From NCBI GenBank assembly GCA_026683435.1, contig GCA_026683435.1_4866.1: a stretch of 64,000 bases of DNA; one strand, written 5' to 3'. Origin of the DNA: a phage. Position numbers and translations under genes: made by a program. Below the pieces are notes generated by a model. It saw only the letters and a list, made by a program, of their open reading frames with translations. It did no database searches and had not been told where the DNA came from. Each line of letters begins with the position of its first letter. The stretch's first letter is position 1. Shown here piece after piece: positions 28,282 to 57,365 of the stretch.

Positions 28282-28293
28282 GGAGATTTTTGA

Positions 28294-32424: not shown

Positions 32425-32459
32425 GACGGACTGCCTGCGGGCGGGTAGTCCGTAGGTAA

Positions 32460-32503
32460 ACCGCCCTTCCGTTATTGGGAGGGCGGTCTCCGTTTTATTA
32501 CAG
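32460..32503 (+). terminator. hairpin with T-tract (terminator/attenuator) between fibre genes
   Basis: ACCGCCCT..AGGGCGGT stem followed by CTCCGTTTTATTAC. Confidence 0.4.
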
Positions 32504-32519
32504 ATTAGGAGTGTTTGCA

Positions 32520-35500
32520 ATGCCGAGAGAAGATGCGGCGCAGTTTAACGGTACGCTCAGTACCGCTACTTACCCGAACCGTTATTCGGCGGTCATTCCC
32601 GTCGAAGCACCGTTCTATCGCATCGGGTTAACGTTAACCGTTACCGATAAAACAACCGGAACCAAACGCAAGTTAATAGAAGGTCTCGATTATTTCTTAG
32701 GACATTACTTCCAGGAATTAGCCGAGGCTGAGAACGATGCAATATACGGCAGCATAATGCTGCTGAACGCCACAGAGGTAGAATACGAGTTACTGTCGGT
32801 TGGTCGACAGTATCGCATCCCTGCTTCTGAAATCGGCAAGTATCTGGTTAAGACAGATATGAAAGACCCGCGTAACTGCGATTGGTCTGAGCTGATGAAA
32901 TATCCGCCGATTATCTCGCCAATCGACCCGCCAAAAGACCTCGAAGAAGCGATTCTTCACGATGAAATCGTAAAGGCGTTGGAAGATATCCGTCTGGGTA
33001 TTTTAGAGCGCGCCCACGAGCTGGATGAGGCTTTTGCCGAAGTTACCGATTTGATTTATCAGAACGGTAAGCAGGTGTTTGATGACGAAATGTATCAACA
33101 CCACCTGATTAAAAATGCACATGGTTACACCTGCGGTGACATTGGCGCTCTCCCGGTACTCGGCAAAGCCGTAGATGCGACTAAGGCATTCGGACGTACC
33201 CTGGCAGAGCTAGTGACGTTAATGTCTACCAGCGGCATCCAACAGAAACACGTTGACATGCTTCTGGATAATACCCTGGGTGATTTACTGGGCCGTATGC
33301 GTGTTCTGAATAACGACGCGATTACGTTCCAAACAACGTCTGGTCACGTTATCAGCATGAAGGGTGAGAAGTTCATCATCACCTCGACAAAACCGCTGGT
33401 ATTAAAAGCTGACCAGGATAACAACGAACCGGGCATCGCTACGGAGTTCAGTGCTGGTCTGAACACGCTTTGGGTTCACTCGGGTAAAGCAGGTGACAAG
33501 TGGGGCGCTTATGATGCAGGTGTGCTTGCACCTGTGTATAACAGCGTGTATCTCGTTACGCCGGATATGGTTAAGATGTACTTGACCTCGGTGAAGATAC
33601 TTCCAGCAAACGCCTACTTCAAGTCCAGCGACACGTTGAAGATTTACGGCTCTGGTAAAGAAACAAACAAACTTTACATGAATGCGGAGCTGCCTGCAGC
33701 AACCACAACTGTGCAGGGTTTGTTTGCGATTACTAACCTTTCGGCGTCCGCTGCAGCATCCACAGCGATTTCCCAAAAAGCTGTTACTGACTTGAAGAAC
33801 AAACTCGACGGATATGCGGACGACACGTATACAGTCAACGGTAAAGGGTTTGTGTTAGACGAAAACGGTCAAATGCATTTAACCTTAACCGCGTCGGATT
33901 TCGGTATTGAGAAGATGAACAATACCGGGCCGCTGGAGAAACCGGTTACTAACGCGTTGCGCACCGTTCTATCAGGCAAAGCGCTTACAACGCACACCCA
34001 CACCATTGCCGATCTCGATAACGTGCCGTACGCATCCACGTCTGTTACAGGTTTGGCTAAACTGTGGGATGCTATTGACACCACAACAGATAAGATGGTT
34101 ACTGCCCGTCAGGGTTTCTTGCTCGAACAAAAGATCGGTACACTGAACGACAAGATTGCTACGTTATTACCGGCGTGGACTGTCGGCGGATCATCGTACG
34201 GCAACAATAACTTCTTGCCTATACCTGTCCAGGGGAACTACGAAGGGTATACCAAAAACCAAACCTGGCAGAAAGGTTTGGCGCGTTACGAGTCTGGTAA
34301 GGTTTACTCGCTCCGTAACGGTTCTAACGGGAACCCACCTGGTGACTGGGCTATCTATTACGCCTATGCTGATGTGTCGCCAAGCAATACGCTGGAAAAT
34401 ATGCAGCAGACGTCCGTACGTTATCGACCCGCTGGAATGTCGGCGTATCCTGGGGTGAATCTGGTTGCTATTGTGATTACCGGTACCGATGCAATGATCT
34501 GCTTAGGCAGTGACGGTGCGTACTACTTGGTCATCTTCGATGGGACGATTGACCATGCAAAACATCATCGTGTTGTTAAAGTGGTGTTGGGTGATTACAA
34601 GAACGGTAATGGTGCGGGCACAGTAACGACAGCACCGTGGGCTCCAAACGCTTCTACAGACGATTTGATTGTTTGTAATGAACGTGTCTACCTGTTGCGT
34701 ACGGTGCTTACCTCCGGTAACTATTTCGTGAGTATGCGTAGCATCGCACTCAACGAACTTAATCCGGGTGGTAGCAACACGTTTGTGGCGGATGCGTTAA
34801 CAGGCGGGATATTAACGTCGGGTGAAAACGTTTATCTGCGACAGGGACAGAAACGTGCACCTTCCGATGCGCTCCCAGCACCAGTTACACAGATCTACGC
34901 AGACGCGTTAGCGAAGTGGAACAATGCAACCAACTTTGTACATGGTCCTGAGTGTAATCACGCGATTGGTGTTGATGGGCTGAGCTTTCGTGTTGGTTTA
35001 ACGCCAACGGTTTGGTTTGCTTCTACTACAGGGCAAACTATTAACTTTAAACAATGGGTGTCAAGCTTTGTTGTCGACTGTAGCGCATTAACGGTAACGC
35101 TGGAAGGTGCTGATCGATTCCCTATTGTGGCTGATCTTACCACGGTTCGTTATAACGGTGGTACTGAGATTGGGATTCCAAGCCGGAAGTGGGGCGAAGG
35201 TCAAGCTAATAACCGAACCTTTGCAACATCGCAAGACAAGTATATCGTTTCGCAAGGACATGCAGGCGATCGCGACCTAATGCCGATTGTCACGATTACC
35301 ACGTTAGACGACGGTGTGAGTTGGTACGAGTACCTGTCGTGCGACTACAACTTCACTGCCAGAAGGTTTAGTGCGGTAACGTTAAACCAAGGTCGTGGTT
35401 CTATCTACGAGCTGGGTATGGCGTATCCACTGACTCTGGGAGCGAATTCCAGACTTATCTGGTTGTCACAGCCACGTTCCCGTTTGGCAATTGAGGTTGA

Positions 35501-37703
35501 GTTTGATCCGAACACCACTTACTCAGGTAAAGCGGGGTATGGCCCAACTAACAATCGACGTGTAGTGGATTCTACCACGTACGAGAATCTGTCGCAGATG
35601 TGCCACATTGTTACACCGGCGTCGCCTGGTACAGAGTTAAACGGCTGGTATTGCACAGGACCAGAAACATTCCCTTACCACAACGTTTCTGGCACTTTCA
35701 CGATTCATGCCGATCGGTTGACGCTGTCACAAGCCGAATGGGATAAGATGAAGCAGATGATCATCGACGGTGCACCGGCAGGCGCTGCGAATGGTTATGC
35801 TTCGGAATTTATCCTTGCCGCAAATAACGCAGGAAAGGCATTGTTCTCCGTTTGGTTCATCGGCATTGGTACGGCCACACCGCTCACGTTAGCACAAGTA
35901 GCATGTACGCGTACTGTGAACAACGTTAACGTGTTGGATATCTACTACTTTACACTGAAACCAACAATCAGCAACGGGCAGGTAACATTCCCCGCAGCGA
36001 TATTGGCTTTGTTTGACTTCTATAACAACCTCGACTATGACTTGAACTATGCTACGTTGGGAGAGATAACGGGAGGAAAAACACGCCGGCCGGGACAACC
36101 TACCATGGTGTCGGTAGATGGTACGCAGTTCGGGTTGTATCTTCCACACACGTTAACCTTGCGCCAAATTGGCGACTTGGGTGCGCTTAACTACGCTGTT
36201 GGTCTTACGTTGTCTAATGGTACCTGGACGCGTTCTTCTGCTCCACACGGCGTTGGACGTATGGCACCGTCACACACTCCAGTCAGTCCAGCTTATCTGG
36301 CACATCGCGATCAAGTGATGTTACACAACTCATCTCTCGACTACGTCTATTGTGGTGGTATCGCAACGTCGTCGAGAGATTTTGTCGCGGCTCCTAATTT
36401 TAGTGGCCCGACTGAATCGGTTGTCATTGCTGGTGTGGAAACAGCTGAAGGTTGGCTGGTATATGTGACTGAGGAAGTTGACCTGCGTTTCGGCTCGAGC
36501 ACTTATAAGCTGCCTACGTGGTATATTGACCTCAGCGCAGCATTTCCAACAAACCATCAGAACCGGACATTCTACCTGCACGCCAAGGTAGAAAATGGTA
36601 CACCGAAGTACGTAATGGACGTGATTCAACATCCAGACACTGAAACGGAACTCTATATCGGGTATGTTAAAACGGGCTCGTCGCGAGTCGTCGAGACTAA
36701 CGTCGAACATGCTAAGCGATTAGGGGCGGTGAAACAACTGTTGGAACATGCGGCGGTTGAGAATAAGCATGATGTGGAAGTGGGAAGGGACGCAGCAACG
36801 GGCAGACTGGCACCATTGCGTAAAGAAGCGATGGGTCCTTTGTCGATCGATGCTACGAAAGGCTATCTGGATAGTCAGTTGCTTTATACCGTATCTGACG
36901 CACAGCGTCGCGGTAAACCGATGGTCTCCAAACGTTTCGAAGGCTTGAAAACTTTGCCGGCGTTTACTCAGGCAAACAAGTCGGGGGCGTTTTGGAAACA
37001 TCCTACAACAATTGCGACGGTAACGGCCGATGAGAACGGTGAAGCGGCATCGTTGGGAATGGAGTGGGTAGGTATCCCTACGCCTGCTTTCTCTCCGACC
37101 TCAGGAACGATGATAGTGGTGATACAAAGTAAATTCGTCGTCCCAGGTACACCGGGAGTAGAAACGACCTTTAATGTTCACGTTGCCCCATGGGAGGCGG
37201 TGGACGGCTTTTTCTACAACATCGAGGCGGAAGGTACGGATGTTAACATTGACGAAAATCCAGAAGTGTTATTGCCGTCACCACATACCGTGCACCACAA
37301 ACAGCACTCTCTGCCAGCAGGCGTGCCGTGCACCTTTACATTTGTCGCGGCGGTAAGTTCTTCAGCGCTCGAAACAGCTAACCAGCATATTTGCTCTTGG
37401 CTTTTCACGGACGCTGGGGGTCTACCAATCACCACCGATCTTTCGGATAGTAAGATTCAAATCTTACCAGCGGCGGGAGAGACCAACGGCACACCAGTTG
37501 TTCTGAACAGTCGTAGCTACACGTTTACGAATGTGACAGGTGCAATCCCGGTTGTTACCACGGGCGCTCAGGGTTTATTCCCACCACCGATCGTGGCGTG
37601 GGATGGCGATGATCTTACGTTAACGATTGCGCACGATTGGGTGAACGAGAGAGGATGGCAACAGCCTGATATTATCCAGGTCAATCTTATGTTCCGTACC
37701 TAA
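32520..37703 (+). CDS. putative tail fibre protein (~1727 aa)
   Basis: ORF track 32475..37703 starts at TTG inside the upstream hairpin; ATG at 32520 has SD AGGAG. Shared N-terminal domain (APFYRIGLTLTV...IEGLDYFLGHYF); THTHTIADLDNVPYASTSVTGLAKL motif. Confidence 0.55.
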   Translation: MPREDAAQFNGTLSTATYPNRYSAVIPVEAPFYRIGLTLTVTDKTTGTKRKLIEGLDYFLGHYFQELAEAENDAIYGSIMLLNATEVEYELLSVGRQYRIPASEIGKYLVKTDMKDPRNCDWSELMKYPPIISPIDPPKDLEEAILHDEIVKALEDIRLGILERAHELDEAFAEVTDLIYQNGKQVFDDEMYQHHLIKNAHGYTCGDIGALPVLGKAVDATKAFGRTLAELVTLMSTSGIQQKHVDMLLDNTLGDLLGRMRVLNNDAITFQTTSGHVISMKGEKFIITSTKPLVLKADQDNNEPGIATEFSAGLNTLWVHSGKAGDKWGAYDAGVLAPVYNSVYLVTPDMVKMYLTSVKILPANAYFKSSDTLKIYGSGKETNKLYMNAELPAATTTVQGLFAITNLSASAAASTAISQKAVTDLKNKLDGYADDTYTVNGKGFVLDENGQMHLTLTASDFGIEKMNNTGPLEKPVTNALRTVLSGKALTTHTHTIADLDNVPYASTSVTGLAKLWDAIDTTTDKMVTARQGFLLEQKIGTLNDKIATLLPAWTVGGSSYGNNNFLPIPVQGNYEGYTKNQTWQKGLARYESGKVYSLRNGSNGNPPGDWAIYYAYADVSPSNTLENMQQTSVRYRPAGMSAYPGVNLVAIVITGTDAMICLGSDGAYYLVIFDGTIDHAKHHRVVKVVLGDYKNGNGAGTVTTAPWAPNASTDDLIVCNERVYLLRTVLTSGNYFVSMRSIALNELNPGGSNTFVADALTGGILTSGENVYLRQGQKRAPSDALPAPVTQIYADALAKWNNATNFVHGPECNHAIGVDGLSFRVGLTPTVWFASTTGQTINFKQWVSSFVVDCSALTVTLEGADRFPIVADLTTVRYNGGTEIGIPSRKWGEGQANNRTFATSQDKYIVSQGHAGDRDLMPIVTITTLDDGVSWYEYLSCDYNFTARRFSAVTLNQGRGSIYELGMAYPLTLGANSRLIWLSQPRSRLAIEVEFDPNTTYSGKAGYGPTNNRRVVDSTTYENLSQMCHIVTPASPGTELNGWYCTGPETFPYHNVSGTFTIHADRLTLSQAEWDKMKQMIIDGAPAGAANGYASEFILAANNAGKALFSVWFIGIGTATPLTLAQVACTRTVNNVNVLDIYYFTLKPTISNGQVTFPAAILALFDFYNNLDYDLNYATLGEITGGKTRRPGQPTMVSVDGTQFGLYLPHTLTLRQIGDLGALNYAVGLTLSNGTWTRSSAPHGVGRMAPSHTPVSPAYLAHRDQVMLHNSSLDYVYCGGIATSSRDFVAAPNFSGPTESVVIAGVETAEGWLVYVTEEVDLRFGSSTYKLPTWYIDLSAAFPTNHQNRTFYLHAKVENGTPKYVMDVIQHPDTETELYIGYVKTGSSRVVETNVEHAKRLGAVKQLLEHAAVENKHDVEVGRDAATGRLAPLRKEAMGPLSIDATKGYLDSQLLYTVSDAQRRGKPMVSKRFEGLKTLPAFTQANKSGAFWKHPTTIATVTADENGEAASLGMEWVGIPTPAFSPTSGTMIVVIQSKFVVPGTPGVETTFNVHVAPWEAVDGFFYNIEAEGTDVNIDENPEVLLPSPHTVHHKQHSLPAGVPCTFTFVAAVSSSALETANQHICSWLFTDAGGLPITTDLSDSKIQILPAAGETNGTPVVLNSRSYTFTNVTGAIPVVTTGAQGLFPPPIVAWDGDDLTLTIAHDWVNERGWQQPDIIQVNLMFRT

Positions 37704-47834: not shown

Positions 47835-47866
47835 AAAAAGAAAGCCTCTTCCCCGTGGGGAAGAGG
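47835..47866 (-). terminator. rho-independent terminator
   Basis: CCTCTTCCCC / GGGAAGAGG stem, loop GTG; minus strand followed by CTTTCTTTTTA. Confidence 0.6.
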
Positions 47867-47912
47867 GCATGGATTATCTTTAGGCTTTAAACCCGTCAAG
47901 TTCCTCGTTAAA

Positions 47913-50090
47913 TTACGATAACGGTATCGTTGGCCGCACCCACGGTTTAGGGGCAGATTTGGTATACGGATTACATTCCATCATTTTACCGAGATACGCA
48001 TCGTAATACACGAAGCGATCGACGTAGAACTTCTCCACCGGTGCACTACTGGTAGCCGATTTCACCCGGTTGCGTTCCACAGCGAGGCTAATCGCCCCGG
48101 TAGGTGCGGGTTTTAGCGTGAACATCACCGCGCGGTTGTAACGCCAAGTGTCGTGCACAATATCAAACTCCGATACACAGTGTGCCATGATACCAAACAA
48201 TGTGGTGGCTGGTAAGTTGGCTACAGCATCGCCGTATGGTGTTCCCACCAAACCGCCGGGTATGTTTTGCTTTTGGAACAGCGTACCTGAAATAATCGTA
48301 CCTAAGAACTCCACAACTACAGGCTTGGTTGGGTCGGTGACTTTATCTATCCCATCCGCACTGGCCAATCGGTTGGCATCTAAATCTGCGAGGTAGTCGA
48401 GGAACTCTTGGTACTCGTTGGTGACATTCGGTTTCACCGTTCCGACGGATACCCAGTTGACGATACTTTTATTCCCACCGACGGCTTCGCCTGCCATCCC
48501 AGGGCGAGTCCATGACATCCCGTCTTCACGACCGTAGACATAGATCGGCGAGCCGGTAGCCGGGGTGTTCCATTGCTCGAACGCTGTATATCGTCCCGGC
48601 TGGCCCCAATCCCCACCCGGACCGCCATAGTAGCGACTCTGGTAGCCGGTAAATTGTGCGACGACTAACTGAGTAGCACCGCCTTTGTCACGGGACCCAG
48701 CTAAGCCGTTACGGTTATTGGTGCCGCTGGGCACCACCGCGCCTGTCCCGAGTGGCGCACCACCAGCTCCACCGATCTTGGTGGTGCTAAACGCATAGTA
48801 GTCGCCCCCACCCCCACCTCCGGCGATGGTGCCGTAGTTTTCGATGGTGACTTTGCCACGGAAGGCATCGGTAATGTGGATTGCGTCAGCTCCGTCTGCT
48901 GATGTGTTCGCAGGCAGAGAATAGACCATACCCGAACCACCACGACCAAGAATGGTTCCCCGGTTAACGAAGTTCCAAACCACCTCGCCAATTTGCGGCA
49001 ATTCGTCGATAACGAACGTCGGTTTCAGGTTGCTGTCGCGATAAACGAAAGCCCCCGCATCTACGGTCACGTTAACAAACAAACGCCCGCACGCCGCATG
49101 GTTGGTCAACGTCGTGGCCCAGTAGCTGTCCGAAACTTGCGACGTAGTTGTGTAGTTCAGGTTAAGGGTTTGCTCGTTATCTTGATAGCGTGCCACATTC
49201 AACGTGGCACTGCCCATGACTTTGTACGAACCCTCCACGGGTGCCAATTGCACTTGTCTTGGCCACTCGCCTGTCAAGTTCTCTACAGGAGCAATTTCGT
49301 TTACATCAAAAACACTCCGAATGCCGAGTGTCTCGATGGCCAGAGCATCGTGCAGGCTACCGGTGAAATCATCCGGGACGTATGTGGTTTTGCCTGCATA
49401 TGTCTCGAGTTTGTTACGTGAAAAGAACACATACTTCGTTCCAAACATCCCGCTCCCCGGTCTAGCGGTCAAAGCTACGACGCTGTTATACGCAGAGGTT
49501 TGGCCTATATCCTCCGGGGACATAGGGGAGCTGACATCGACTTTATCAAGATCCACGATCCGTTTGGTTGCATTAGAGTAGAAGTTAATCCACTGCTGTT
49601 TATTCGCAGCCTTTAGCGTGAGAATGATGTTGGTAACAGTGTAGACGGTGTTGATATCCACGTCACCGTTTATCACATCTAGCGTTTGGCTGCCGTACCA
49701 GATAAGACTTGTCTGTTTCGTCTGGAACGTGATGCGCGCAGCATTGTTTGTCCAAGTGATAGGCAGGTCTTCAAAGTCGTCAGTTAAAAAGGTAATCCCT
49801 AGTAGAGTGTCTAAATGCGGCAACAGTTCGTGGATGGACGCACAAGTGGGAATGGCATCCAACTTAACCTTGGCGAAATAATCAGCAATATTTTGCTTCG
49901 TGACTTGGGCCGTAATTTGACCGTAATTTGAATACCCCGGACCCCCTGTCAGTGTGACGTCTAGGGTTTTTTCGTCACGATGCGCCACGGACACCAGGCG
50001 TACGTTAGCGGGGTCTACTGCTTTGGCGACCGCGTTTTTACGGTTGAGCGACCGAATCACGGTCGCCACTAAATCAGGAGTGTAGGACAT
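47913..50090 (-). CDS. N-module family protein (725 aa) with Gly-rich central tract; putative receptor-binding/adhesin protein
   Basis: Shared N-module; central GGGGGGDYYAFSTTKIGGAGGAPLGTG...YYGGPGGDWGQPG; C-terminal PYTKSAPKPW shared with 50105..51424. Confidence 0.55.
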   Translation of the reverse strand: MSYTPDLVATVIRSLNRKNAVAKAVDPANVRLVSVAHRDEKTLDVTLTGGPGYSNYGQITAQVTKQNIADYFAKVKLDAIPTCASIHELLPHLDTLLGITFLTDDFEDLPITWTNNAARITFQTKQTSLIWYGSQTLDVINGDVDINTVYTVTNIILTLKAANKQQWINFYSNATKRIVDLDKVDVSSPMSPEDIGQTSAYNSVVALTARPGSGMFGTKYVFFSRNKLETYAGKTTYVPDDFTGSLHDALAIETLGIRSVFDVNEIAPVENLTGEWPRQVQLAPVEGSYKVMGSATLNVARYQDNEQTLNLNYTTTSQVSDSYWATTLTNHAACGRLFVNVTVDAGAFVYRDSNLKPTFVIDELPQIGEVVWNFVNRGTILGRGGSGMVYSLPANTSADGADAIHITDAFRGKVTIENYGTIAGGGGGGDYYAFSTTKIGGAGGAPLGTGAVVPSGTNNRNGLAGSRDKGGATQLVVAQFTGYQSRYYGGPGGDWGQPGRYTAFEQWNTPATGSPIYVYGREDGMSWTRPGMAGEAVGGNKSIVNWVSVGTVKPNVTNEYQEFLDYLADLDANRLASADGIDKVTDPTKPVVVEFLGTIISGTLFQKQNIPGGLVGTPYGDAVANLPATTLFGIMAHCVSEFDIVHDTWRYNRAVMFTLKPAPTGAISLAVERNRVKSATSSAPVEKFYVDRFVYYDAYLGKMMECNPYTKSAPKPWVRPTIPLS

Positions 50091-50104: not shown

Positions 50105-51424
50105 CTATAGCGGTGGATACCAAGGGACCGGGGCGGTTTTGCTATATGGACTGTAGACCATATAGCCGCCTTTGCTTGGGTCGTAATAGATGAAATAGTT
50201 ACAGTAATTCGAGTAGAGGCTCGTCATTTGTTTGGATTGGTATCCGTTACGGTATAGTCCCTGGTAAGTAGTAGCTGATGTCGTGGTGGTGTAAGCAGTG
50301 TGGTACAGTACCCGACGCCGGTTAGCAATACTTTCTTGGAACATCTCTTCGGTCGGAAACGCGTGTTGCATCAGCCGTCGAATACTCCCGGTACAGTATC
50401 GAGTGCCATACGGGGAACCCGTTAAATCATCCGCCGTTTCAGGCGATTCTGCCCGAGTCAACACGTACTCGTTTTGATACAACGTGACGCTCATCGAATT
50501 TGGGCTGGTTTCCCGGAAACTCATGTAACGCGCATAACGTTCGACGTCCTCTTCCTGCGCCAAATAGGCCACGTTATTTTTCGGACCAAAGTGCAAGAAG
50601 AACGGACGACGGAGATTACCCATATCCTCAGGTGGCGTCAACTTCACGCAGTAATTGTACTCCCCACGCATATCAGGGTCTAAGCCTGGGTTGTTATTGC
50701 GTGTAGCGACATACCCATAGAGGTCATACGGGTTATCAGTAGCAGCATTACCGATAGTGAACGGGATGCCCGACCATGCCGACAGCGCCGCGATGAACTG
50801 GGTCATGTACGAGTTACTGTTTAGTCGCAGCGGGGTACCCATTGGAATATTGATTATCTGTTGGGTGTACATGCTCCAGTCGAGTCGATAGACCGTGCTG
50901 TAAACATCCATGGGTTCCCAAGCCCCGGTTTCGGTGGTGTGGTACAAGTCGGCAAAGCTGGGCTCTTCACGAATAAAGCTAATAGGAATGTGACCCGTGA
51001 ATGCGGGGTTATCCGATTTAATCGCCACCGTCCGATCGCCCGTTGCCACAGTGATCATTGCAAACTGGCTGTCGGGATACGTTAAATCGTCAGCAGTAAG
51101 CACCAACCCACAAGCTGCGGAAATCCGGTCGATGATGTCGCGGTAGGACGTCGCCCGATAAGGTACTTTAACCGGTACGCTGACGCCTTTAAAATACTGC
51201 GAAAGGTTTAAGCGGTCGTAGTAGATGTCCATCTTACCGCTGTAACCACCACCCTGTAATCCGTTTACCACTATACGGCTGTTGCGGCCATCGCGCAAGG
51301 CATTGGTTAAAGGACCTTGTAATAACGCCACGTTTGTTGCGTTGAGTGGTTTCTTGAGCTGCGGGTTATCACGATTAATCTGATCCCAAACCAGCTGCAT
51401 GACAGGTTTGTTATAGTTGATCAT
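50105..51424 (-). CDS. N-module family protein (439 aa)
   Basis: N-terminus MINYNKPVMQLVWDQINRDNPQL...GRNSRIVVNGLQGGGYSGKMDIYYDRLNLSQYF; C-terminal PYSKTAPVPW. Confidence 0.55.
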   Translation of the reverse strand: MINYNKPVMQLVWDQINRDNPQLKKPLNATNVALLQGPLTNALRDGRNSRIVVNGLQGGGYSGKMDIYYDRLNLSQYFKGVSVPVKVPYRATSYRDIIDRISAACGLVLTADDLTYPDSQFAMITVATGDRTVAIKSDNPAFTGHIPISFIREEPSFADLYHTTETGAWEPMDVYSTVYRLDWSMYTQQIINIPMGTPLRLNSNSYMTQFIAALSAWSGIPFTIGNAATDNPYDLYGYVATRNNNPGLDPDMRGEYNYCVKLTPPEDMGNLRRPFFLHFGPKNNVAYLAQEEDVERYARYMSFRETSPNSMSVTLYQNEYVLTRAESPETADDLTGSPYGTRYCTGSIRRLMQHAFPTEEMFQESIANRRRVLYHTAYTTTTSATTYQGLYRNGYQSKQMTSLYSNYCNYFIYYDPSKGGYMVYSPYSKTAPVPWYPPL

Positions 51425-51432
51425 TGCAACGT

Positions 51433-51470
51433 CCTAAAAAAAGAAAATAGGCCCTTCGGGGCCTATTTTT
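51433..51470. terminator. rho-independent terminator (bidirectional)
   Basis: AATAGGCCC / GGGCCTATT stem with loop TTCG, flanked by an A-tract and a T-tract. Confidence 0.6.
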
Positions 51471-51498
51471 AGCTGTTATGGTGAAGTACGCTATCCCT

Positions 51499-51591
51499 TT
51501 AACTCCAGCTGATTCGACCTGCGTGTTGGGGATTATCCCGCTGAATGAGCCGACACAACAGCTCAAGTGCAGTGGATGAGTAAAACCCCAT
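51499..51591 (-). pseudogene. 30-codon relic of an N-module gene
   Basis: MGFYSSTALELLCRLIQRDNPQHAGRISWS followed by a stop, own SD GGAGC; matches residues 1-30 of 53991..55409 (MGLYTEPSMELLCQQIVRDNPGLAGKITADS). Confidence 0.5.
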
Positions 51592-51602
51592 ATTAGCTCC
51601 TG

Positions 51603-51743
51603 TTAGCTAAGAACCAATTCGATAACGTGGACTACCGACGCGCTACTGTTCGAAGAGATGTACGATGGTGAGTCTGGATAAGTGGCGCGATAATACCACG
51701 TGTTGGCGTTGCCAGCGATTTGATAGGCGCGTCTACCGACTGT
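51603..51743 (-). pseudogene. C-terminal relic of an FN3-like/GPGP-family gene (X family)
   Basis: Encodes ...NTWYYRATYPDSPSYISSNSSASVVHVIELVLS, aligning with the C-termini of 52090..52989 (WYSRPPYPESPSNGRY...SIAVLELVLP) and 55423..56346; an in-frame stop lies about 46 codons upstream. Confidence 0.45.
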
Positions 51744-51844
51744 ACACTGCTATCAGATAACCAAACACCGTATAAATCACGTAGAGCTGGGAGAAGATCC
51801 CGCACGGTCTTGGCCGTTTGTGGTACGTAGACGCGCGGAGCTAT

Positions 51845-52078
51845 TTAAAATAGATCTGATAATGTTAAACGGTCGTAATAAACCGTGCACTCCCCAGAGA
51901 AACCTTTACCGGGTTTACCTACCAACGTAATTACCGTGTTACGACCATTCTTAGTGGTCTCGGCAGGAATACCCCTCACCCCAATCGAATCAGCGCTGAT
52001 TCTTCCTGCGAGTTCAGGGTTATCCCTTACAACCTGTTGGCAGAGCAGTTCCAGTTCGGGTGCGCTATACAATCCCAT
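51845..52078 (-). pseudogene. truncated N-module gene (77 codons, N-terminal module only)
   Basis: MGLYSAPELELLCQQVVRDNPELAGRISADSIGVRG...ECTVYYDRLTLSDLF then stop; near-colinear with the first 77 aa of the 472-aa gene 53991..55409; SD retained. Confidence 0.55.
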
Positions 52079-52089
52079 GAAGTCTCCTG

Positions 52090-52989
52090 TTAAGGCAGAA
52101 CGAGTTCAAGTACCGCAATAGAACGTATTGTATCGGTTTCGTATCTACCGTTCGACGGCGACTCTGGGTAAGGTGGACGGCTGTACCACTGATTGTAAAT
52201 GTCAGACATAGTCGCAAAGAGTGCAGATTGCGGGGCAGTAGTCGAATCGGTTGGACCGACCGGAAGGTCGTCAAAGCGCGGCAACTGCCCACTGTAGTTG
52301 TACAGGCGCGCGAAAGTGTTAAACCACTCACCGTCGAGATACAGCTCGGTCTTACCGCTTCTAACGTTAGTCGTCCAGAATCTGTAGTCGAACAAATACG
52401 GCAAACGCACCACGTATTCGTAACCGTTCTTCGCCACCGTGCGGCGTTGGTTACGTGCAGTGGCCCAGCTCGGTACAAATCCATTGCCATCCTGGCCGTA
52501 CATCAGCCCCTGGTTATAAATGAACTGCGGGCTAGCGTATATTATCGCGTTATCGGACATAAACAGAATACGGTTTTTGTAAATGAACTTATGCCAGGCA
52601 CCAACGGCGGAACTGAACATATTCACCACGAGGCTGTTCAGTTCCGTGTTAGTGAATAACTCTGTTGGCGTTACTGTTCCAAAGTATCCAGCGTGCCAGT
52701 CGCCGTATAACAGCTTCTGGGGGCCAGGCCCGGTGTCTAAAAAGAACCCTTGGGCGGTAGGGGTGTTGAAGACACGCTCACCGTCTTTAACCGCAGCTAT
52801 CCAATAACGGTAAGTGGTGTTGTTTTCCACAGCGTTGTCTTCGTACGATGTAGCGTCACCCGGAAGGGTTGCCAGAGGCGTTCCCGGTGCATTAACATCA
52901 ATGGTGGCGTTGCCCGGCGTCTTGCGATAGATTTCGATGCTATCGAGCGCCTGTGGCTTCCGTTGTGCAAAGTTTAATGTAATAGGCAT
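52090..52989 (-). CDS. X-family protein: FN3-like N-terminal segment plus GPGP domain (~300 aa)
   Basis: ORF track 52090..53025; ATG at 52987-52989 gives MPITLNF..., colinear with paralogue 55423..56346; motifs IEIYRK, TTYRYW.AAVKD.ER, DTGPGPQ, GYFGTV, C-terminal ELVLP. Confidence 0.55.
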   Translation of the reverse strand: MPITLNFAQRKPQALDSIEIYRKTPGNATIDVNAPGTPLATLPGDATSYEDNAVENNTTYRYWIAAVKDGERVFNTPTAQGFFLDTGPGPQKLLYGDWHAGYFGTVTPTELFTNTELNSLVVNMFSSAVGAWHKFIYKNRILFMSDNAIIYASPQFIYNQGLMYGQDGNGFVPSWATARNQRRTVAKNGYEYVVRLPYLFDYRFWTTNVRSGKTELYLDGEWFNTFARLYNYSGQLPRFDDLPVGPTDSTTAPQSALFATMSDIYNQWYSRPPYPESPSNGRYETDTIRSIAVLELVLP

Positions 52990-52991
52990 GA

Positions 52992-53978
52992 TTAATCCTC
53001 GATAAGCTCGATTACTGGAATCCAAACACCGCCCGCGGTCGCACCAGCGACATGTTGTATACGCTGGAGGTTATCCACGGTATCAGTGGAACCCGCCGCC
53101 GTTCCGCGCGTCAGCCCCAACTTACGGTCTGGGTCAAACTCCTGACAATGCGCCCCGCGGCCACTCACCGCCGATCCACTTCCGAATATGCTGGTGTTCG
53201 ACCACTTTATCAGGGACATCACTTTTTTCTTTTCTGGGAACCAGCTACTTATCCCATAGATGAGTCGGTTGTATTCGCTATCGGCAGTATACGGTGACGC
53301 GTCATGGAGTTTACCGTCCCACTGTGCATCGAGTGTCATGACCGGGCTTTCACTGTCGAGTGTTAAACCGCGCAGCAGGCGCATCCGATAGCGGTCACCC
53401 AACCACGTAAACTCCCCAGCCTGGTCAACGTCAGGTAAATCACCATGACCGCCTTCCGGACCAGGTCCCGCCACACCGTACAGCAAACCCGCGTTATAAA
53501 TCGCATCACGGCTATACAGCGTGTTGCCGTTCACACGAAGACCACTAAACAGATACAGAATTTTACCGTCTAGCTGGAACTTCATCAAGCCCGGCTTAAC
53601 AGTTGGGTCGTATCCAGAAAGGGCCACAAACCCTGGCGGATAATCAGCCGCGCTAGGCAATTCACCGTACGCCACATACCCGTAATACGCAAAGCGGTCA
53701 TCACCGTACTGTGGAGCCACGATGCCGATACCGCGACGGTTCTGAATTAGAATTGATTTCTGCGGACTGAACAGTGTCCGACTTCCCACTGTCACGGTGG
53801 TCATGTAGTAATACGTTGTCCCCAGTATCGCTGTTCGGTCAGTATACTCAGTTTCCCCGTTAGTGAACGTTGCCAGGGGTTCAGGTAATGCCGTACGCAC
53901 CAGAGGTTTGGTGTCGCGGTACAGCTTCACGGTCGAAGCCCCAGGGTTATTGTTCGTCCAACGAATTGTAAAAGCCAT
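52992..53978 (-). CDS. Y-family protein: FN3-like N-terminal segment plus GPGP domain (328 aa)
   Basis: Paralogue of 56356..57354 (MAFTIRWTNNNPG...KLYRD vs MSFTLRWKNPNVIP...KIYRD); GPGPEGGHGDLP; C-terminal IELIED. Confidence 0.55.
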   Translation of the reverse strand: MAFTIRWTNNNPGASTVKLYRDTKPLVRTALPEPLATFTNGETEYTDRTAILGTTYYYMTTVTVGSRTLFSPQKSILIQNRRGIGIVAPQYGDDRFAYYGYVAYGELPSAADYPPGFVALSGYDPTVKPGLMKFQLDGKILYLFSGLRVNGNTLYSRDAIYNAGLLYGVAGPGPEGGHGDLPDVDQAGEFTWLGDRYRMRLLRGLTLDSESPVMTLDAQWDGKLHDASPYTADSEYNRLIYGISSWFPEKKKVMSLIKWSNTSIFGSGSAVSGRGAHCQEFDPDRKLGLTRGTAAGSTDTVDNLQRIQHVAGATAGGVWIPVIELIED

Positions 53979-53990
53979 TGTCGTTACCTC

Positions 53991-55409
53991 TTATTGGAAT
54001 CCATCCAACTCACCGTTAGTATCGCCCAGAGTAATTTTTGAAGGTTGGGCGATTTGGTCAGTCGTGAGAATAATCGGTCTAATCTTAACGCTAGCCATGC
54101 CTGTTACCGCGACGGAATATGCACGTTCATCATTGTCCGTCGTGGCAAGCAGAGGACGTGGATTCGCTGCAGCGGAGGTTTCCGTAATAGGCACCACACG
54201 AAGCGATTCGTTTTGGTCGATGTCTGTCAGAGTAACCACGGACGGTGCCCATGTCAGTTCTGCACCTTCGTCAATCAACGGCACAGGTTCATTGGCAACA
54301 TCAAACATCTCCAGGATTGGCCAAAAGCCAGAAGAGGTGTGGATGTATGTGTATGAACGATAGCTCCCACTGATAGACTGGTAATACGCTTGGTCGGCAC
54401 CGAACTGGTGTCGTAACCACACGTAATCCAGGAAGTTAGCATCAGTCGTGCTAAGAGTTCCCCATTCCCCATATACGTTCACCGACCCCAATTTGCTGGT
54501 CAGTGACAGGATAGAGGTGATTGACGGCGGTTTACTCCAATCAGGCGCGGCGGCGTTCTCGGTGTAATACGGGATAGACATTCTGAAATAATGCGTTCCT
54601 TCATCATCCCGTTTTACCATGTATTTCAACTGTTCAACATCGACAGGTGTGTAAGTCGACTTCGGGCGAGGTCCTGCGTCTCCGGAATCAAATATTGCAC
54701 CCTTGTTGTACAGGTCTGCCCAGGTAACGTTGCAAATCGCACGGGTCGGAACAAACACTACCGCCCCATTCAGAAAGAATTTGAGCCACTTGATAGCGTA
54801 GCGGTTAGGCCAGTTGGTGCCGTTATAGAGGGCATACACCATTTCATCAGATGTGAATAACTCTTCCGCGCTTACCAACCCAAAGAATCCGTATAACTCA
54901 TTACCGGCCATTAATCCTTTTGGCCCAGGACCCGATTTCGGATACATCGCAATCGGTTCGTAAACATAGGTCATCTTGCATGACCCGGTATAACACAAGG
55001 AGTTAGCGTGCGCCGTCAGAGTTACAGTTTCCGGCGTAGCGTATTTCATTAATGCAACGTTTGGACTGGTGATGTCACTCGCGGTTAAGTTCAACCCGTT
55101 CAATTCATTGAACGCCGGTAACGCTTCCGCATGGGTTTGTGCGCTACGTGGAATACTCACCATATTCGGGCCAGACTTGAACAGACTGGCCAGATTCAAC
55201 CGGTCGTAATATACCGTTATTTCCCCAGCAAATCCTTTACCGGGTTTTCCTACCAACGTAATCTGTGTGTTTCGTCCGTTAACGTTTTTCGCAACAGGAA
55301 CACCCCTGACCCCAATGGAGTCAGCGGTGATTTTTCCTGCTAAACCGGGATTGTCACGCACAATTTGTTGGCAGAGCAGTTCCATTGAAGGTTCTGTATA
55401 CAACCCCAT
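53991..55409 (-). CDS. N-module plus GPGP-domain protein (472 aa)
   Basis: Shared N-module; SGPGPKGLMAGNELYGFFGLVSAEELF; C-terminus ...GDTNGELDGFQ; paralogue of 57366..58778. Confidence 0.55.
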   Translation of the reverse strand: MGLYTEPSMELLCQQIVRDNPGLAGKITADSIGVRGVPVAKNVNGRNTQITLVGKPGKGFAGEITVYYDRLNLASLFKSGPNMVSIPRSAQTHAEALPAFNELNGLNLTASDITSPNVALMKYATPETVTLTAHANSLCYTGSCKMTYVYEPIAMYPKSGPGPKGLMAGNELYGFFGLVSAEELFTSDEMVYALYNGTNWPNRYAIKWLKFFLNGAVVFVPTRAICNVTWADLYNKGAIFDSGDAGPRPKSTYTPVDVEQLKYMVKRDDEGTHYFRMSIPYYTENAAAPDWSKPPSITSILSLTSKLGSVNVYGEWGTLSTTDANFLDYVWLRHQFGADQAYYQSISGSYRSYTYIHTSSGFWPILEMFDVANEPVPLIDEGAELTWAPSVVTLTDIDQNESLRVVPITETSAAANPRPLLATTDNDERAYSVAVTGMASVKIRPIILTTDQIAQPSKITLGDTNGELDGFQ

Positions 55410-55422
55410 GGTATTTACTCCA

Positions 55423-56346
55423 TTACGGTAAGACTAATTCAAAAGCAAAGAACATCGTGGCCGAGTTCCCGACACCTGAGGTGTTACTAATCCCCATAGG
55501 CGCATAACCGTACGCATAAGCGAAAATGTTGTTGCTCCATAAAGGAGCTAATGCAGCAGCACCTGTTTCGTTAGGCTGGTAAGTTGAACCTTGCGCCGGT
55601 ATTGAATCGATGGCACCAAGACCAATAGGCGGGAACTGTGAACCGACAGGATACAAACGGCCCATTGTGTTTCGCCATTCACCGTTGTTGTAATCCTGTC
55701 CTGAGAGTGCCGCGTCGTACGGGACTGCGTAAGGTAACCGGATACGGTACGTACGACCATCCTTCGTGACCTTACAATCTTGTTTGGTCGCCGTGGCCCC
55801 CAGCGGAACAATACTTCCGTCATCATCGGTCCCGTACATCATGCCGTACTGATACGCCATTTGTACCGAGTTGCTTTTCGAATGCATCGTCGCTGGGAAG
55901 AAGACAATTCGCCCACGGAAAATAAACTTGTGCCATTCCTGAGGGTCGTAAGTAAACATGTTTCCCTGCTGCGCGGTTAACATGAGTTTTAACTCGGCAG
56001 TATTAAAGAACTCGGTATTAGATACCGTACCGAAATAGCCTGACGCCCAATCGCCACGCAAAATAGTTTGTGGCCCCGGTCCAGTGTCCGGATAGAACCC
56101 TTGCGTAATCGGATTGCCGATAAGTCGTTCATTATCTTTCACAGCAGCTACCCAGTAACGATAAGTTGTATTCTTCGTCAGGGTATCGATATTATCTACG
56201 AACTCTACCGCGCTACCGGATAAGGTGGCGTGGGGTGTACCTGGGTTGTAAACGTCGATTGTTGCGTTCCATCCTTCCTTGCGGTAGATTTCAATCGCGG
56301 TAAGACCTTTGCTGGCTTGGGACGGCCAGCTTAACCGTATAGTCAT
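55423..56346 (-). CDS. X-family protein (307 aa)
   Basis: Paralogue of 52090..52989; IEIYRK, DTGPGPQ, C-terminal FELVLP. Confidence 0.55.
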   Translation of the reverse strand: MTIRLSWPSQASKGLTAIEIYRKEGWNATIDVYNPGTPHATLSGSAVEFVDNIDTLTKNTTYRYWVAAVKDNERLIGNPITQGFYPDTGPGPQTILRGDWASGYFGTVSNTEFFNTAELKLMLTAQQGNMFTYDPQEWHKFIFRGRIVFFPATMHSKSNSVQMAYQYGMMYGTDDDGSIVPLGATATKQDCKVTKDGRTYRIRLPYAVPYDAALSGQDYNNGEWRNTMGRLYPVGSQFPPIGLGAIDSIPAQGSTYQPNETGAAALAPLWSNNIFAYAYGYAPMGISNTSGVGNSATMFFAFELVLP

Positions 56347-56355
56347 GACTGCCCC

Positions 56356-57354
56356 TTACTCGACCAGTTCAAAGATAGGGTAGTAGCGCCCTTTCGTGGT
56401 GGGTGATAAATAGTTTATACGCTGAATCGTGGATACGGGTGTTCCACCGGCATTGTTAAAAATACCACGATGGAGCACACGGTCTTCCGCGGTATCGTGT
56501 TCCATACAGAGAACACCACCGCCGAAATACTGTGCCAAGGTTCCCAAAGTACCCTGTCCCAGATAAGTATAACCGATTGTTGCCCAGTTAGCCCAACGCT
56601 GTTTCTTCGGCACCTCGTTAACCATCGTGTAAAGTAAATCGTTATACTCACACGGGTTGGTTAGAGAAGCGATTTCATCATGGGTTTTCCCATTATAGTC
56701 AGCTACGAAAGGATACGCAGGAGGCTCGCTAGACGTCGTCAGGCCGCGAGGAAGACGCATAATGTACGTATCCCCTTTGTGGACTATCTTAGCGTCTTGT
56801 GGAGTGGCCGGTAGCGTTCCATGGCCGTTCTCTGGGCCAGCATCGCCCGTACCATAGACTAAACCAGCTTGATAGAGGGAAGCCCAGTCCACAGGCGTAT
56901 TCGGGAACTGCGACGTGTTAGATAGCATGTAATAGATCTTCCCGTTTCGGGTAAATTTATACAACGCCACACGATCGGTTAGTAGGTTAGGGAACATCGC
57001 CAAAAATGCAGGTGGCATTTGCGACGGAAGCCACTGTTCGTCGTAAGGAACCGCACCCATAAACCCTAAACGGTCGTCACCGTTTAGAATAGTCATTGGG
57101 CCTATCCCGCGTTTTACCTCAACAGTATATTTCTGGCTAGACGATGCCACTGTTTTACCGTTGGCGGTTACCGTCAGAAGGTAATAATAGGTTGCGCCTG
57201 GTGTGGCGGTGGTATCACGCCATTCTGTCTCGCCATTTGAGAGCGTTGCAATCGGTTCAGGCAAAGCGCCTGGTGTGATATCTTTAACATCACGGTAGAT
57301 TTTTACTACCGTAGGGATTACGTTTGGATTTTTCCAACGCAAAGTAAAAGACAT
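56356..57354 (-). CDS. Y-family protein (332 aa)
   Basis: Paralogue of 52992..53978; GDAGPENGHGTLP; C-terminal FELVE. Confidence 0.55.
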   Translation of the reverse strand: MSFTLRWKNPNVIPTVVKIYRDVKDITPGALPEPIATLSNGETEWRDTTATPGATYYYLLTVTANGKTVASSSQKYTVEVKRGIGPMTILNGDDRLGFMGAVPYDEQWLPSQMPPAFLAMFPNLLTDRVALYKFTRNGKIYYMLSNTSQFPNTPVDWASLYQAGLVYGTGDAGPENGHGTLPATPQDAKIVHKGDTYIMRLPRGLTTSSEPPAYPFVADYNGKTHDEIASLTNPCEYNDLLYTMVNEVPKKQRWANWATIGYTYLGQGTLGTLAQYFGGGVLCMEHDTAEDRVLHRGIFNNAGGTPVSTIQRINYLSPTTKGRYYPIFELVE

Positions 57355-57365
57355 GGATGATACCT

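Follow-up and report, generated by a model that had tools for sequence, protein, structure and literature searches.

The question raised by this locus is whether a glycine-rich tract inside a 725-residue protein of a jumbo phage marks a receptor-binding protein. How nucleus-forming jumbo phages (Chimalliviridae) recognise their hosts is poorly understood, and reports on the receptor of seoulviruses conflict, flagella having been reported for SPN3US but O-antigen for SPFM phages. To our knowledge, a receptor-binding protein has not yet been assigned in this group. The window analysed here, that is, the whole 64-kb stretch of phage DNA, is 97-98% identical to Seoulvirus genomes, and its source is an SPN3US-like Seoulvirus, a giant Salmonella phage. 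The gene carrying the tract is the orthologue of SPN3US_0155 (gp155, AEP83988), with 97% nucleotide identity to SPN3US 133169-135346, and PHROG 19313 covers its product (hereafter the gp155-like protein) over the full length.

The glycine tract and the Gp38-type domain

The first-pass annotation had reported a 725-residue open reading frame with three glycine-rich runs, and all of these strings were recovered exactly in the translation (Table 1). The open reading frame is on the minus strand, which the annotation had left unstated. Within the glycine-rich span 48590..48965 (aa 376-501), 32/126 residues are glycine (25.4%) compared with 38/599 (6.3%) outside it (Fisher p = 4.6e-9). A search of the DNA under this span for tandem repeats or a slippage origin found none, and the local GC peak of 0.62 is attributable to the GGN codons. 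The tract forms no more than the core of a domain of about 245 residues (Table 1). At the edges of this domain two more conserved glycine blocks were recognised, NRGxIxGRG, which overlaps the span at its start, and PGxxG, which lies outside the span.

Table 1. Positions of the gene, its domains, glycine blocks and variable segments, and the upstream neighbour in the 64-kb window
Feature	Residues	Coordinates	Strand	Evidence or remark
gp155-like gene	725 aa + stop	47913..50090	minus	ORF list, translation
DUF7941 N-type domain 1	11-154	49629..50060	minus	PF25613, 61 bits alone
DUF7941 N-type domain 2, weaker internal duplicate	176-301	49188..49565	minus	PF25613
Gp38-like adhesin domain	about 310-555	48426..49163	minus	Pfam, profile, AF2, Foldseek
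Glycine block 1, VNRGTILGRG	375-384	48939..48968	minus	Column entropy 0.8-1.1 bits
Glycine run GRGGSG	382-387	48930-48947	minus	Exact string in translation
Variable segment 1	385-409	48864..48938	minus	Entropy about 2.0-2.2 bits; indels in <=8/14 sequences
Glycine block 2, FRGKVTIENYGTIAGGGGGG	410-429	48804..48863	minus	Aligned with S16 Gp38 INNQGWICGGGGGGG
Glycine run GGGGGGDYYAFSTTKIGGAGGAPLGTG	424-450	48741-48821	minus	Exact string in translation
Variable segment 2	430-439	48774..48803	minus	Entropy 2.3-2.5 bits; indels
Glycine block 3, GGAGGAPLGT	440-449	48744..48773	minus	Aligned with S16 Gp38 GGGGGRPLGAGG
Variable segment 3	450-486	48633..48743	minus	Entropy 1.8-2.5 bits; indels in <=9/14 sequences
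Glycine run and conserved glycine block 4, YYGGPGGDWGQPG	487-499	48594-48632	minus	Exact string in translation
Variable segment 4	500-529	48504..48593	minus	Entropy 1.6-2.6 bits; indels in <=11/14 sequences
Glycine block 5, PGMAGEAVG	530-538	48477..48503	minus	Followed by conserved W546, G550, P554
C-terminal domain, common to the neighbouring 439-aa protein	556-725	47916..48425	minus	phrog_6409, phrog_19313
Upstream neighbour, orthologue of SPN3US gp154	439 aa	50105..51424	minus	DUF7941, 93.9 bits

With Pfam, this domain was matched by the GP38 family (PF05268) at 65.9 bits (E 5.9e-18; envelope aa 373-553), far above the curated cut-off of 25 bits, and eight more orthologues scored 57-88 bits, several of them spanning profile positions 2-214 of 218. 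The first-pass annotation had proposed a comparison with adhesin tip domains, and the Gp38 structures were matched both by sequence profile and by predicted fold. A profile built from 14 orthologues retrieved PP01 Gp38 (9v85, E 3.7e-16) and S16 Gp38 (6f45_D, E 1.6e-14) from the PDB with collinear motifs, and the HMM matches of the glycine domain were exclusive to Gp38. Structure prediction, for which a domain-only AF2 model replaced the full-length model in this region, gave a pLDDT of 87.2 and a pTM of 0.84, the predicted fold being a beta-helix connector plus a three-layer polyglycine-II sandwich. When this model was compared with the PDB by Foldseek, only Gp38 structures were returned (E 1e-13 to 2e-10, TM 0.59-0.71; TMt 0.71 to 9v85_C and 0.62 to 6f45_D), the next match having an E-value of 0.39, and the BFVD structure matches were likewise Gp38 or Gp38-domain proteins. 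The tract thus belongs almost certainly to a Gp38-type fold. Collagen-like, RTX-like and generic beta-helix repeats were considered as candidates and rejected, since the Foldseek and HMM matches were to Gp38 only.

Homologue searches recovered a limited set of sequences. When phage genomes were searched with the domain by tblastn, only seoulviruses were found, with the low-complexity filter masking T-even Gp38; word-indexed searches yielded 4 matches with the domain alone and 13 with the full-length protein, and a search with the alignment profile added none. As the family is small, the alignment was not deepened by these searches. The attachment domain Gp38_N (PF21721) was absent from the gp155-like protein and from every 700-755-aa orthologue in the Pfam scan, in which a genuine 282-aa Gp38 (P0026), serving as the positive control, was matched. 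The earlier proposal that the tract is adhesin-like is therefore borne out as regards homology to a tip adhesin, fold and the layout of glycine and variable segments, while a role at the tail-fibre tip is unproven, Gp38_N being absent.

Block layout and flanking domains

Gp38 is defined by five conserved glycine-rich motifs with four variable segments between them (PMC12032242). As in Gp38, the alignment of 14 orthologues (22-82% identity) contains five conserved glycine blocks separated by four variable, indel-rich segments. In block 1, N376, G378, G382 and G384 are invariant, and the block aligns with 'IYGRGG' of S16 Gp38; in block 2, invariance extends to N418, G420, I422 and G424-G429, with an entropy of 0 across aa 425-429. 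Block 3 has invariant G444 and G448 (G441 and G443 being at least 90% conserved), and block 4, invariant at G492, G493, G496 and G499, aligns with YAGNGGDVGNPG of S16 Gp38 and YYAGGGGEVGQPG of PP01 Gp38. The block 5 region, in which G534, G550 and P554 are invariant and W546 is at least 90% conserved, aligns with 'PGAAVAG...TW' of PP01 Gp38. That the blocks stay constant while the length and sequence between them change at greater divergence suggests that the loops may be free to adapt. Among eight close orthologues (94-99% identity), inter-block hypervariability was sought and none was found (6/71 versus 11/111 sites, p = 0.8, in a comparison where ambiguous bases in the Lh1B record inflate the apparent variation). 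Given that the inter-block segments are not enriched in changes at this distance, there is no sign of short-range hypervariability driven by host range.

Upstream of this domain, the PF25613 profile (cut-off 27 bits) matched the whole protein at 79.8 bits, although the match was confined to the N-globular part of this profile (positions 12-166 of 276). The second, weaker copy reached 29.2 bits (E 8e-7) when aa 156-330 were scanned alone, and two orthologues (P0024 and P0025) have their best DUF7941 stretch at this second position. Confidence of the N-domains in the full-length AF2 model was moderate (pLDDT about 60-85). This model, built from 8 sequences with an overall pLDDT of 68.6, was of low confidence over aa 446-472 and 512-527, variable segment 3 being its lowest-confidence part, and matched 9xqd_0 by Foldseek (E 2.4e-5, TMt 0.53). 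The matched chain was checked and is phiKZ gp127, itself a DUF7941 protein. DUF7941 was also sought in the phiKZ outer-baseplate proteins gp26, gp27, gp139 and gp157 and not found; only gp143 matched weakly.

Downstream of the sandwich, the C-terminal 170 residues gave no Pfam match even at E<=10 and form the most variable domain among orthologues. They are shared with the upstream gp154-like protein: phrog_6409 covers aa 556-719 of the gp155-like protein and aa 312-436 of this neighbour, which phrog_19313 also matches at aa 328-438. Among the paralogues that lack the adhesin insert, the gp154-like protein, with a DUF7941 N-domain and the same C-terminal domain, is the closest. The window contains at least 12 other DUF7941 open reading frames, a multi-paralogue set of Chimalliviridae. 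Scanning of 14 other open reading frames of the array gave DUF7941 only, DUF7941 with other sequence, or no Pfam match, leaving the gp155-like protein as the sole carrier of a Gp38 domain and, as had been supposed, the most adhesin-like member.

Proposed function, virion location and alternatives

Based on the homology and the models, the gp155-like protein is a strong candidate for a host-recognition protein, and on balance it probably acts as the adhesin subunit of a DUF7941 filament system. Head-to-tail polymerisation of DUF7941 modules into long flexible filaments has been reported in a preprint whose model is partly AlphaFold-based and whose electron microscopic evidence concerns Goslar gp22 only, filaments of which were visible by negative staining (10.64898/2026.04.21.720040). 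Through its two DUF7941 domains, the gp155-like protein would be incorporated as a low-copy subunit within such virion-attached filaments or at their end; published spectral counts relative to the portal give a rough estimate of about 10 gp155 copies per virion. The five glycine blocks would build the compact polyglycine-II sandwich, with the four variable segments as the loops between them, the element that contacts the receptor in T-even-type Gp38. Displayed on exposed filaments, the domain would provide surface binding for an initial, probably reversible, capture of the host, with LPS/O-antigen, an outer-membrane protein or the flagellum as candidate targets, and the point of attachment to the virion may be the baseplate or the head/neck. 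The 170-residue chain that follows the sandwich, unlike in Gp38, could leave the tip partly covered. Other receptor-binding candidates in the window are the phiKZ gp131-like giants at 24568-37703.

Association with the virion is known from published proteomics (PMC10052503 Table S2). In wild-type virions, SPN3US gp155 was represented by 626 PSMs, and DNA-full tailless heads purified twice on CsCl retained it at 0.89 of the wild-type level. The DUF7941 'paralog family B' of SPN3US also persists in tailless heads, and the authors assigned both it and gp155 to the head. On the structural side, phiKZ gp127 sits in the outer peripheral baseplate (PMC13250141), so that the proteomic and structural placements of the family are contradictory. 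Retention in tailless heads would not be expected of filaments anchored at the baseplate alone, and an internal location is possible. If the DUF7941 filaments of seoulviruses, including the Gp38-type subunit, were instead or additionally borne on the head/neck, the tailless-head proteomics would be reconciled with the adhesin fold, and first capture via O-antigen or flagellum could precede engagement of the tail. We regard this variant as rather doubtful, but if true it would represent a capsid-borne T-even-style adhesin on long flexible filaments, a new deployment of the polyglycine-sandwich adhesin.

Several alternatives to an adhesin on filaments have to be weighed. Both the high glycine content and the low-confidence stretches of the full-length model, which was based on a shallow alignment, would fit a disordered low-complexity linker. 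The first-pass annotation had allowed for this outcome, but structure prediction returned a confident domain whose fold matches exclusively Gp38, the glycines are invariant across distant orthologues and the PF05268 score is far over its cut-off, making such a linker extremely improbable. A folded polyglycine sandwich might still serve only as a rigid block or junction devoid of receptor specificity. The lack of excess inter-block change among close orthologues, whose phages have Salmonella, E. coli or Proteus as hosts, accords with this view, and the tip could lie buried under the extra C-terminal domain; nevertheless, the inter-block segments vary in length and sequence at greater divergence around invariant blocks, and the domain has no known non-adhesin role, and a purely structural spacer is thus unlikely. 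It is less likely again that the protein is a classical tip adhesin at the distal end of phiKZ gp131-like fibres, in the manner of T2/S16 Gp38 on gp37. The Gp38 homology and predicted fold, the automatic annotation of one GenBank record (SPFM19) as 'Phage tail fiber adhesin Gp38', and the fibre candidates and 'tail assembly chaperone' PHROG nearby in the window favour this role. However, the Gp38_N domain by which genuine Gp38 is attached is missing, the gene lies inside the DUF7941 array instead of adjoining fibre genes, and gp155 is kept in tailless particles, in which the levels of the fibre proteins gp168-170 fall more than 10-fold.

The same retention, together with the assignment to 'Head' and the label 'Head ejection?' given by the SPN3US authors to related DUF7941 paralogs, would fit a protein that is packaged inside the head and perhaps ejected, its Gp38-like sandwich having been co-opted for a role within the capsid or the host cell. 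This is slightly more plausible than a mere spacer but still improbable. gp155 is not among the nine listed proteins processed by the prohead protease, the Gp38-type domains characterised so far are all extracellular adhesins (PMC12032242), and the pattern of conserved blocks and variable loops is typical of a binding surface. Furthermore, filament formation by DUF7941 proteins is seen in vitro, phiKZ gp127 occupies the exterior of the baseplate, and two abundant Goslar virion proteins (not DUF7941) that were tested were not injected. CsCl preparations also capture large non-virion assemblies, according to the Goslar authors (10.64898/2026.04.21.720040).

Comparison with known adhesins and DUF7941 proteins

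Gp38 of T2/T6/S16/PP01-type Straboviridae (PF05268; 6F45 chain D, 9V85) is the homologue in both sequence and predicted fold, its GRM1-5 being collinear with the five glycine blocks and likewise separated by four variable segments. The two differ in context: Gp38 is a monomer of about 260 aa, encoded next to the distal long-tail-fibre gene, that docks via Gp38_N on the gp37 fibre tip, whereas the gp155-like protein has 725 aa, belongs to a DUF7941 array, lacks Gp38_N and carries about 300 aa before and 170 aa after the domain. Also unlike Gp38, SPN3US gp155 occurs in tailless-head preparations, and its close orthologues lack short-range hypervariability. Fusion of a Gp38-type domain to a DUF7941 filament module would appear, from sequence and models, to be a new architecture of a known adhesin fold. 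For phage engineering, it indicates that the Gp38 binding module can be embedded in a far larger protein and be flanked by sequence at either end.

In Goslar, gp86, gp92 and gp161 of the proposed 'DUF7941 fibre cloud' similarly combine an N-terminal DUF7941 module with a downstream domain linked to host recognition (10.64898/2026.04.21.720040). These fusions and the gp155-like protein share a Chimalliviridae-specific module and a low copy number beside very abundant short DUF7941 proteins, SPN3US gp141 and gp160 corresponding to Goslar gp22 and gp23. The payloads differ, those described in the Goslar preprint being carbohydrate-binding, glycoside hydrolase and LRR domains, while the gp155-like protein has a Gp38-type adhesin domain and a duplicated DUF7941 N-domain; Gp38 and SPN3US go unmentioned in that preprint. 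The gp155-like gene connects structural work on the Gp38 polyglycine sandwich with the proposed fibre cloud and represents a concrete, testable receptor-binding candidate, for which amber-mutant genetics already exists in SPN3US. The N-domain of phiKZ gp127 (9XQD chain 0) is of the same Pfam family and similar in predicted fold, but that protein has 290 aa without an adhesin domain, and its baseplate site contrasts with the head assignment of SPN3US DUF7941 proteins.

At least two genera of phages share the four-part domain architecture. Two Derbicusvirus proteins, gp144 of Cronobacter phage CR5 and gp145 of Erwinia phage Phobos, are full-length orthologues with 38-40% identity and the same four parts, and their genes directly follow the gp154-like gene, as in Seoulvirus. 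In all three, the gp155-like gene is part of the DUF7941 array or closes it: the Seoulvirus gene stands at the array end, flanked by a DUF7941 paralogue and an endolysin gene, whereas the CR5 and Phobos genes are mid-array, and the inter-block segments of their products differ from the Seoulvirus ones in both sequence and length.

The glycine tract and its Gp38-type domain

The 725-aa ORF, the orthologue of SPN3US gp155, is real, and the three glycine runs quoted for it by the first-pass annotation are exact. Glycine accounts for 32/126 residues of the tract (25.4%) versus 6.3% elsewhere in the protein (Fisher p = 4.6e-9). A search for a DNA tandem repeat under the tract found none, and the GC peak of 0.62 at this position derives from GGN codons.

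Pfam GP38 (PF05268, 'Phage tail fibre adhesin Gp38') matches aa 373-553 with 65.9 bits (cut-off 25), and PHROG 2056 ('tail fiber protein; host specificity') matches aa 370-553. In several orthologues the GP38 match extends over profile positions 2-214 of 218, so the domain is present in full, with connector and sandwich, at about aa 310-555. A profile built from 14 orthologues (22-82% identity) recovered the solved Gp38 structures of PP01 (9V85, E 3.7e-16) and S16 (6F45 chain D, E 1.6e-14), with collinear motifs GRGG, I-N-x-G-x-I-x-GGGGGG, GGGGxPLG and Y-x-G-x-GG-x-x-G-x-PG. In the alignment, five glycine blocks alternate with four variable segments (column entropy about 2 bits or more, indels in up to 11/14 sequences). 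Gp38 adhesins are defined by this same layout, with four hypervariable segments set between five glycine-rich motifs (PMC12032242).

The predicted fold is ordered. A full-length AF2 model (8 sequences) was of moderate confidence (pLDDT 68.6) and matched Gp38 structures and phiKZ 9xqd chain 0, while a model of aa 300-560 alone (15 sequences) reached pLDDT 87.2 and pTM 0.84. In a Foldseek search of the PDB, the domain model matched 9v85_C (E 1.2e-13, TM 0.61/0.71), 9v85_A and 6f45_D (E 2.4e-10, TM 0.59/0.62), with no non-Gp38 match below E 0.39. In BFVD, its top match was a 719-aa protein (TMq 0.77); the hits ranked next were Gp38 proteins about 250-280 aa long and proteins of other phages that carry a Gp38 domain. 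The comparison with adhesin tip domains agrees across Pfam, profile and Foldseek, and the tract is almost certainly the core of an adhesin domain with a polyglycine sandwich of Gp38 type. A disordered linker was rejected on the confidence of the domain model and its Gp38-only fold matches, and retains a negligible probability.

Features of the 725-aa protein and of the surrounding window
Feature	Protein position	Window position	Strand	Remark
725-aa ORF		47913..50090	-	
DUF7941 (PF25613) domain 1	aa 11-154			Pfam match
DUF7941 N-type domain 2	aa 176-301	49188..49565	-	weaker, diverged; 29.2 bits, E 8e-7, scanned alone
Glycine-rich tract	aa 376-501	48590..48965		
Glycine run 1	aa 382-387	48930-48947	-	exact match
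Glycine run 2	aa 424-450	48741-48821	-	exact match
Glycine run 3	aa 487-499	48594-48632	-	exact match
Block 1 invariants	N376, G378, G382, G384			14-sequence alignment
Block 2 invariants	N418, G420, I422, G424-429			14-sequence alignment
Block 3 invariants	G444, G448			14-sequence alignment
Block 4 invariants	G492, G493, G496, G499			14-sequence alignment
Block 5 invariants	G534, then G550 and P554			14-sequence alignment
Variable segments (four)	aa 385-409, 430-439, 450-486, 500-529			between glycine blocks
C-terminal domain, 170 aa	aa 556-725	47916..48425	-	PHROG 6409/19313 similarity
Same domain in 439-aa neighbour		50105..50500	-	gp154 orthologue
Triplets		55423..58778; 52090..55409	-	
gp148 homologue		53991..55409	-	gap at ~54154..54161
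~2.87-kb deletion site		51425..52090		junction near 51698-51714
77-aa ORF		51845..52078	-	orphan gp151 N-terminus
182-aa DUF7941 protein		44473..45021	-	SPN3US gp160 orthologue
Downstream genes		46287..46928, 45762..46277, 47217..47870	-	
Downstream gene		43721..44392	+	
Three giant ORFs, 1237/1376/1742 aa		24568..37703	+	no Pfam match

Architecture and relatives of the 725-aa protein

The second DUF7941 N-type domain indicates that the filament module is tandemly duplicated ahead of the adhesin domain. The C-terminal domain, which has no Pfam match, recurs at the end of the 439-aa protein encoded upstream. In many orthologues it ends in a conserved LSxxxGELDGF motif, missing from the window and SPN3US versions. 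Compared with Gp38 proper, the protein differs in size and gene context, and the Gp38_N docking domain (PF21721) was not found in it; on these three grounds it is not a Gp38 family member in the strict sense, but a homologous Gp38 domain set in a new architecture.

The gene is 96-98% identical in DNA to its counterparts in 33 Seoulvirus genomes, including SPN3US, the SPFM and SPLA series, SEGD1, EC001, Lh1B and Proteus phage 7. It corresponds to SPN3US_0155 (RefSeq ACQ60_gp111), annotated 'hypothetical protein'; a single record, SPFM19, was labelled automatically as 'Phage tail fiber adhesin Gp38'. With the domain as query, phmmer run exhaustively against 1.84 billion representatives recovered 13 proteins, nearly all of 700-755 aa with the domain in the same position, and one a genuine 282-aa Gp38 with Gp38_N. 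Full-length orthologues include Cronobacter phage CR5 gp144 and Erwinia phage Phobos gp145, both immediately after a gp154-like gene in mid-array, and others on metagenomic contigs of up to ~240 kb. One metagenomic protein (P0009, 423 aa) joins aa 1-250 straight to the C-terminal domain, and so lacks the Gp38-like domain entirely, together with the latter half of the middle region; this natural or assembly variant resembles the gp154 type.

Virion location and possible function

DUF7941 is reported to be specific to Chimalliviridae, with purified Goslar gp22 assembling into filaments that reach hundreds of nanometres and AlphaFold predicting head-to-tail oligomers; three Goslar members bear carbohydrate-binding, glycosidase or LRR domains, and the family has been proposed as a host-recognition 'fibre cloud' anchored at the peripheral baseplate (10.64898/2026.04.21.720040, a 2026 preprint that mentions neither Gp38 nor SPN3US). 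In the literature searched, a single further paper names DUF7941. phiKZ gp127 (9xqd chain 0), itself a DUF7941 protein (97.5 bits), has been modelled beside the outermost gp139 dimer of the outer peripheral baseplate (PMC13250141).

gp155 (78.3 kDa) is firmly virion-associated, with 626 PSMs in SPN3US virions (PMC10052503); normalised by mass and set against the portal (12 copies, 849 PSMs, 72.3 kDa), this count would correspond, as a rough estimate, to about 8 gp155 copies in each virion. In tailless but DNA-full 255(am107) heads, purified twice on CsCl, its normalised ratio was 0.89, giving a head assignment, and tail proteins including fibre candidates gp168-170 fell more than 10-fold (PMC10052503); an earlier dataset is consistent with this result (PMC5694885). 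The whole SPN3US DUF7941 set, 'paralog family B' (gps 83, 138-154, 161, 237; gp155 was left out of the count), behaved alike. DUF7941 filaments may co-purify with or stick to heads, and CsCl-type preparations also pick up large non-virion assemblies according to the Goslar authors (10.64898/2026.04.21.720040). Alternatively, Seoulvirus filaments may be attached at the head or neck, or the family may be internal.

For the protein as a whole, we lean towards a low-copy adhesin subunit borne by the virion DUF7941 filament system. An internal head protein would suit the tailless-head ratio and is unlikely beside a domain of Gp38-type sequence and fold. The first-pass comparison with adhesin tips held for that sequence and predicted fold. 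Among eight close Seoulvirus orthologues, from phages whose isolation hosts were Salmonella, E. coli and Proteus, amino acid changes were not concentrated between glycine blocks (6/71 vs 11/111 sites, p = 0.8), and the C-terminal domain varied most. A structural spacer lacking specificity, with which such a pattern is compatible, is slightly less likely still, the segments, unlike the blocks, changing in length and sequence among more distant orthologues. A classical fibre-tip adhesin, the role of Gp38 itself, is the least likely of these three, with the docking domain not found, the gene lying in the DUF7941 array and the protein retained in tailless particles.

The three giant ORFs, corresponding by size to SPN3US gp170/169/168 (135, 149, 188 kDa), are candidate rival receptor-binding proteins, as 'paralog family C' or phiKZ gp131-like baseplate/tail-fibre candidates; the second and third align to the SPN3US locus over their whole length, the first at its 3' end. 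Seoulvirus receptor reports disagree: flagella are reported for SPN3US (PMC11428620), whereas SPFM phages, which share 98% identity with the window in this gene, plated with EOP 1.0 when flgK or btuB was mutated and with EOP 0 when rfaL was (PMC8777603).

Array and neighbouring genes

The description of this protein as the most adhesin-like member of the array of DUF7941-type genes is borne out, with GP38 in 0/14 other ORFs scanned; these carried DUF7941 only, DUF7941 with other sequence, or no Pfam match. The gp160 orthologue, among the most abundant SPN3US virion proteins, parallels Goslar gp23, likewise a short DUF7941 protein of very high abundance. The genes immediately downstream of the 725-aa ORF encode a GH108 + PG_binding_3 endolysin, a DUF1353 protein that falls in the PHROG 'tail assembly chaperone', and another endolysin-like product (phrog_894), with a DUF4376 protein slightly beyond. 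DUF4376 is frequent on fibre-assembly proteins.

The array consists of repeating triplets of ~470 aa (DUF7941 N-domain + phrog_3589), ~330 aa and ~307 aa, the latter two with phrog_1062 and no Pfam match; SPN3US proteomics assigned all triplet proteins to the head. Relative to SPN3US, the window lacks ~2.87 kb (SPN3US 128679-131545, most of gp151 and all of gp152 and gp153), that is, one 480/332/300-aa triplet, leaving two triplets versus three. A DUF7941-like start persists in the 77-aa remnant. The gp148 homologue is 472 aa, compared with 498 aa in SPN3US, through an in-frame deletion near its C-terminus (blastn gap of ~78 nt, 26 codons).
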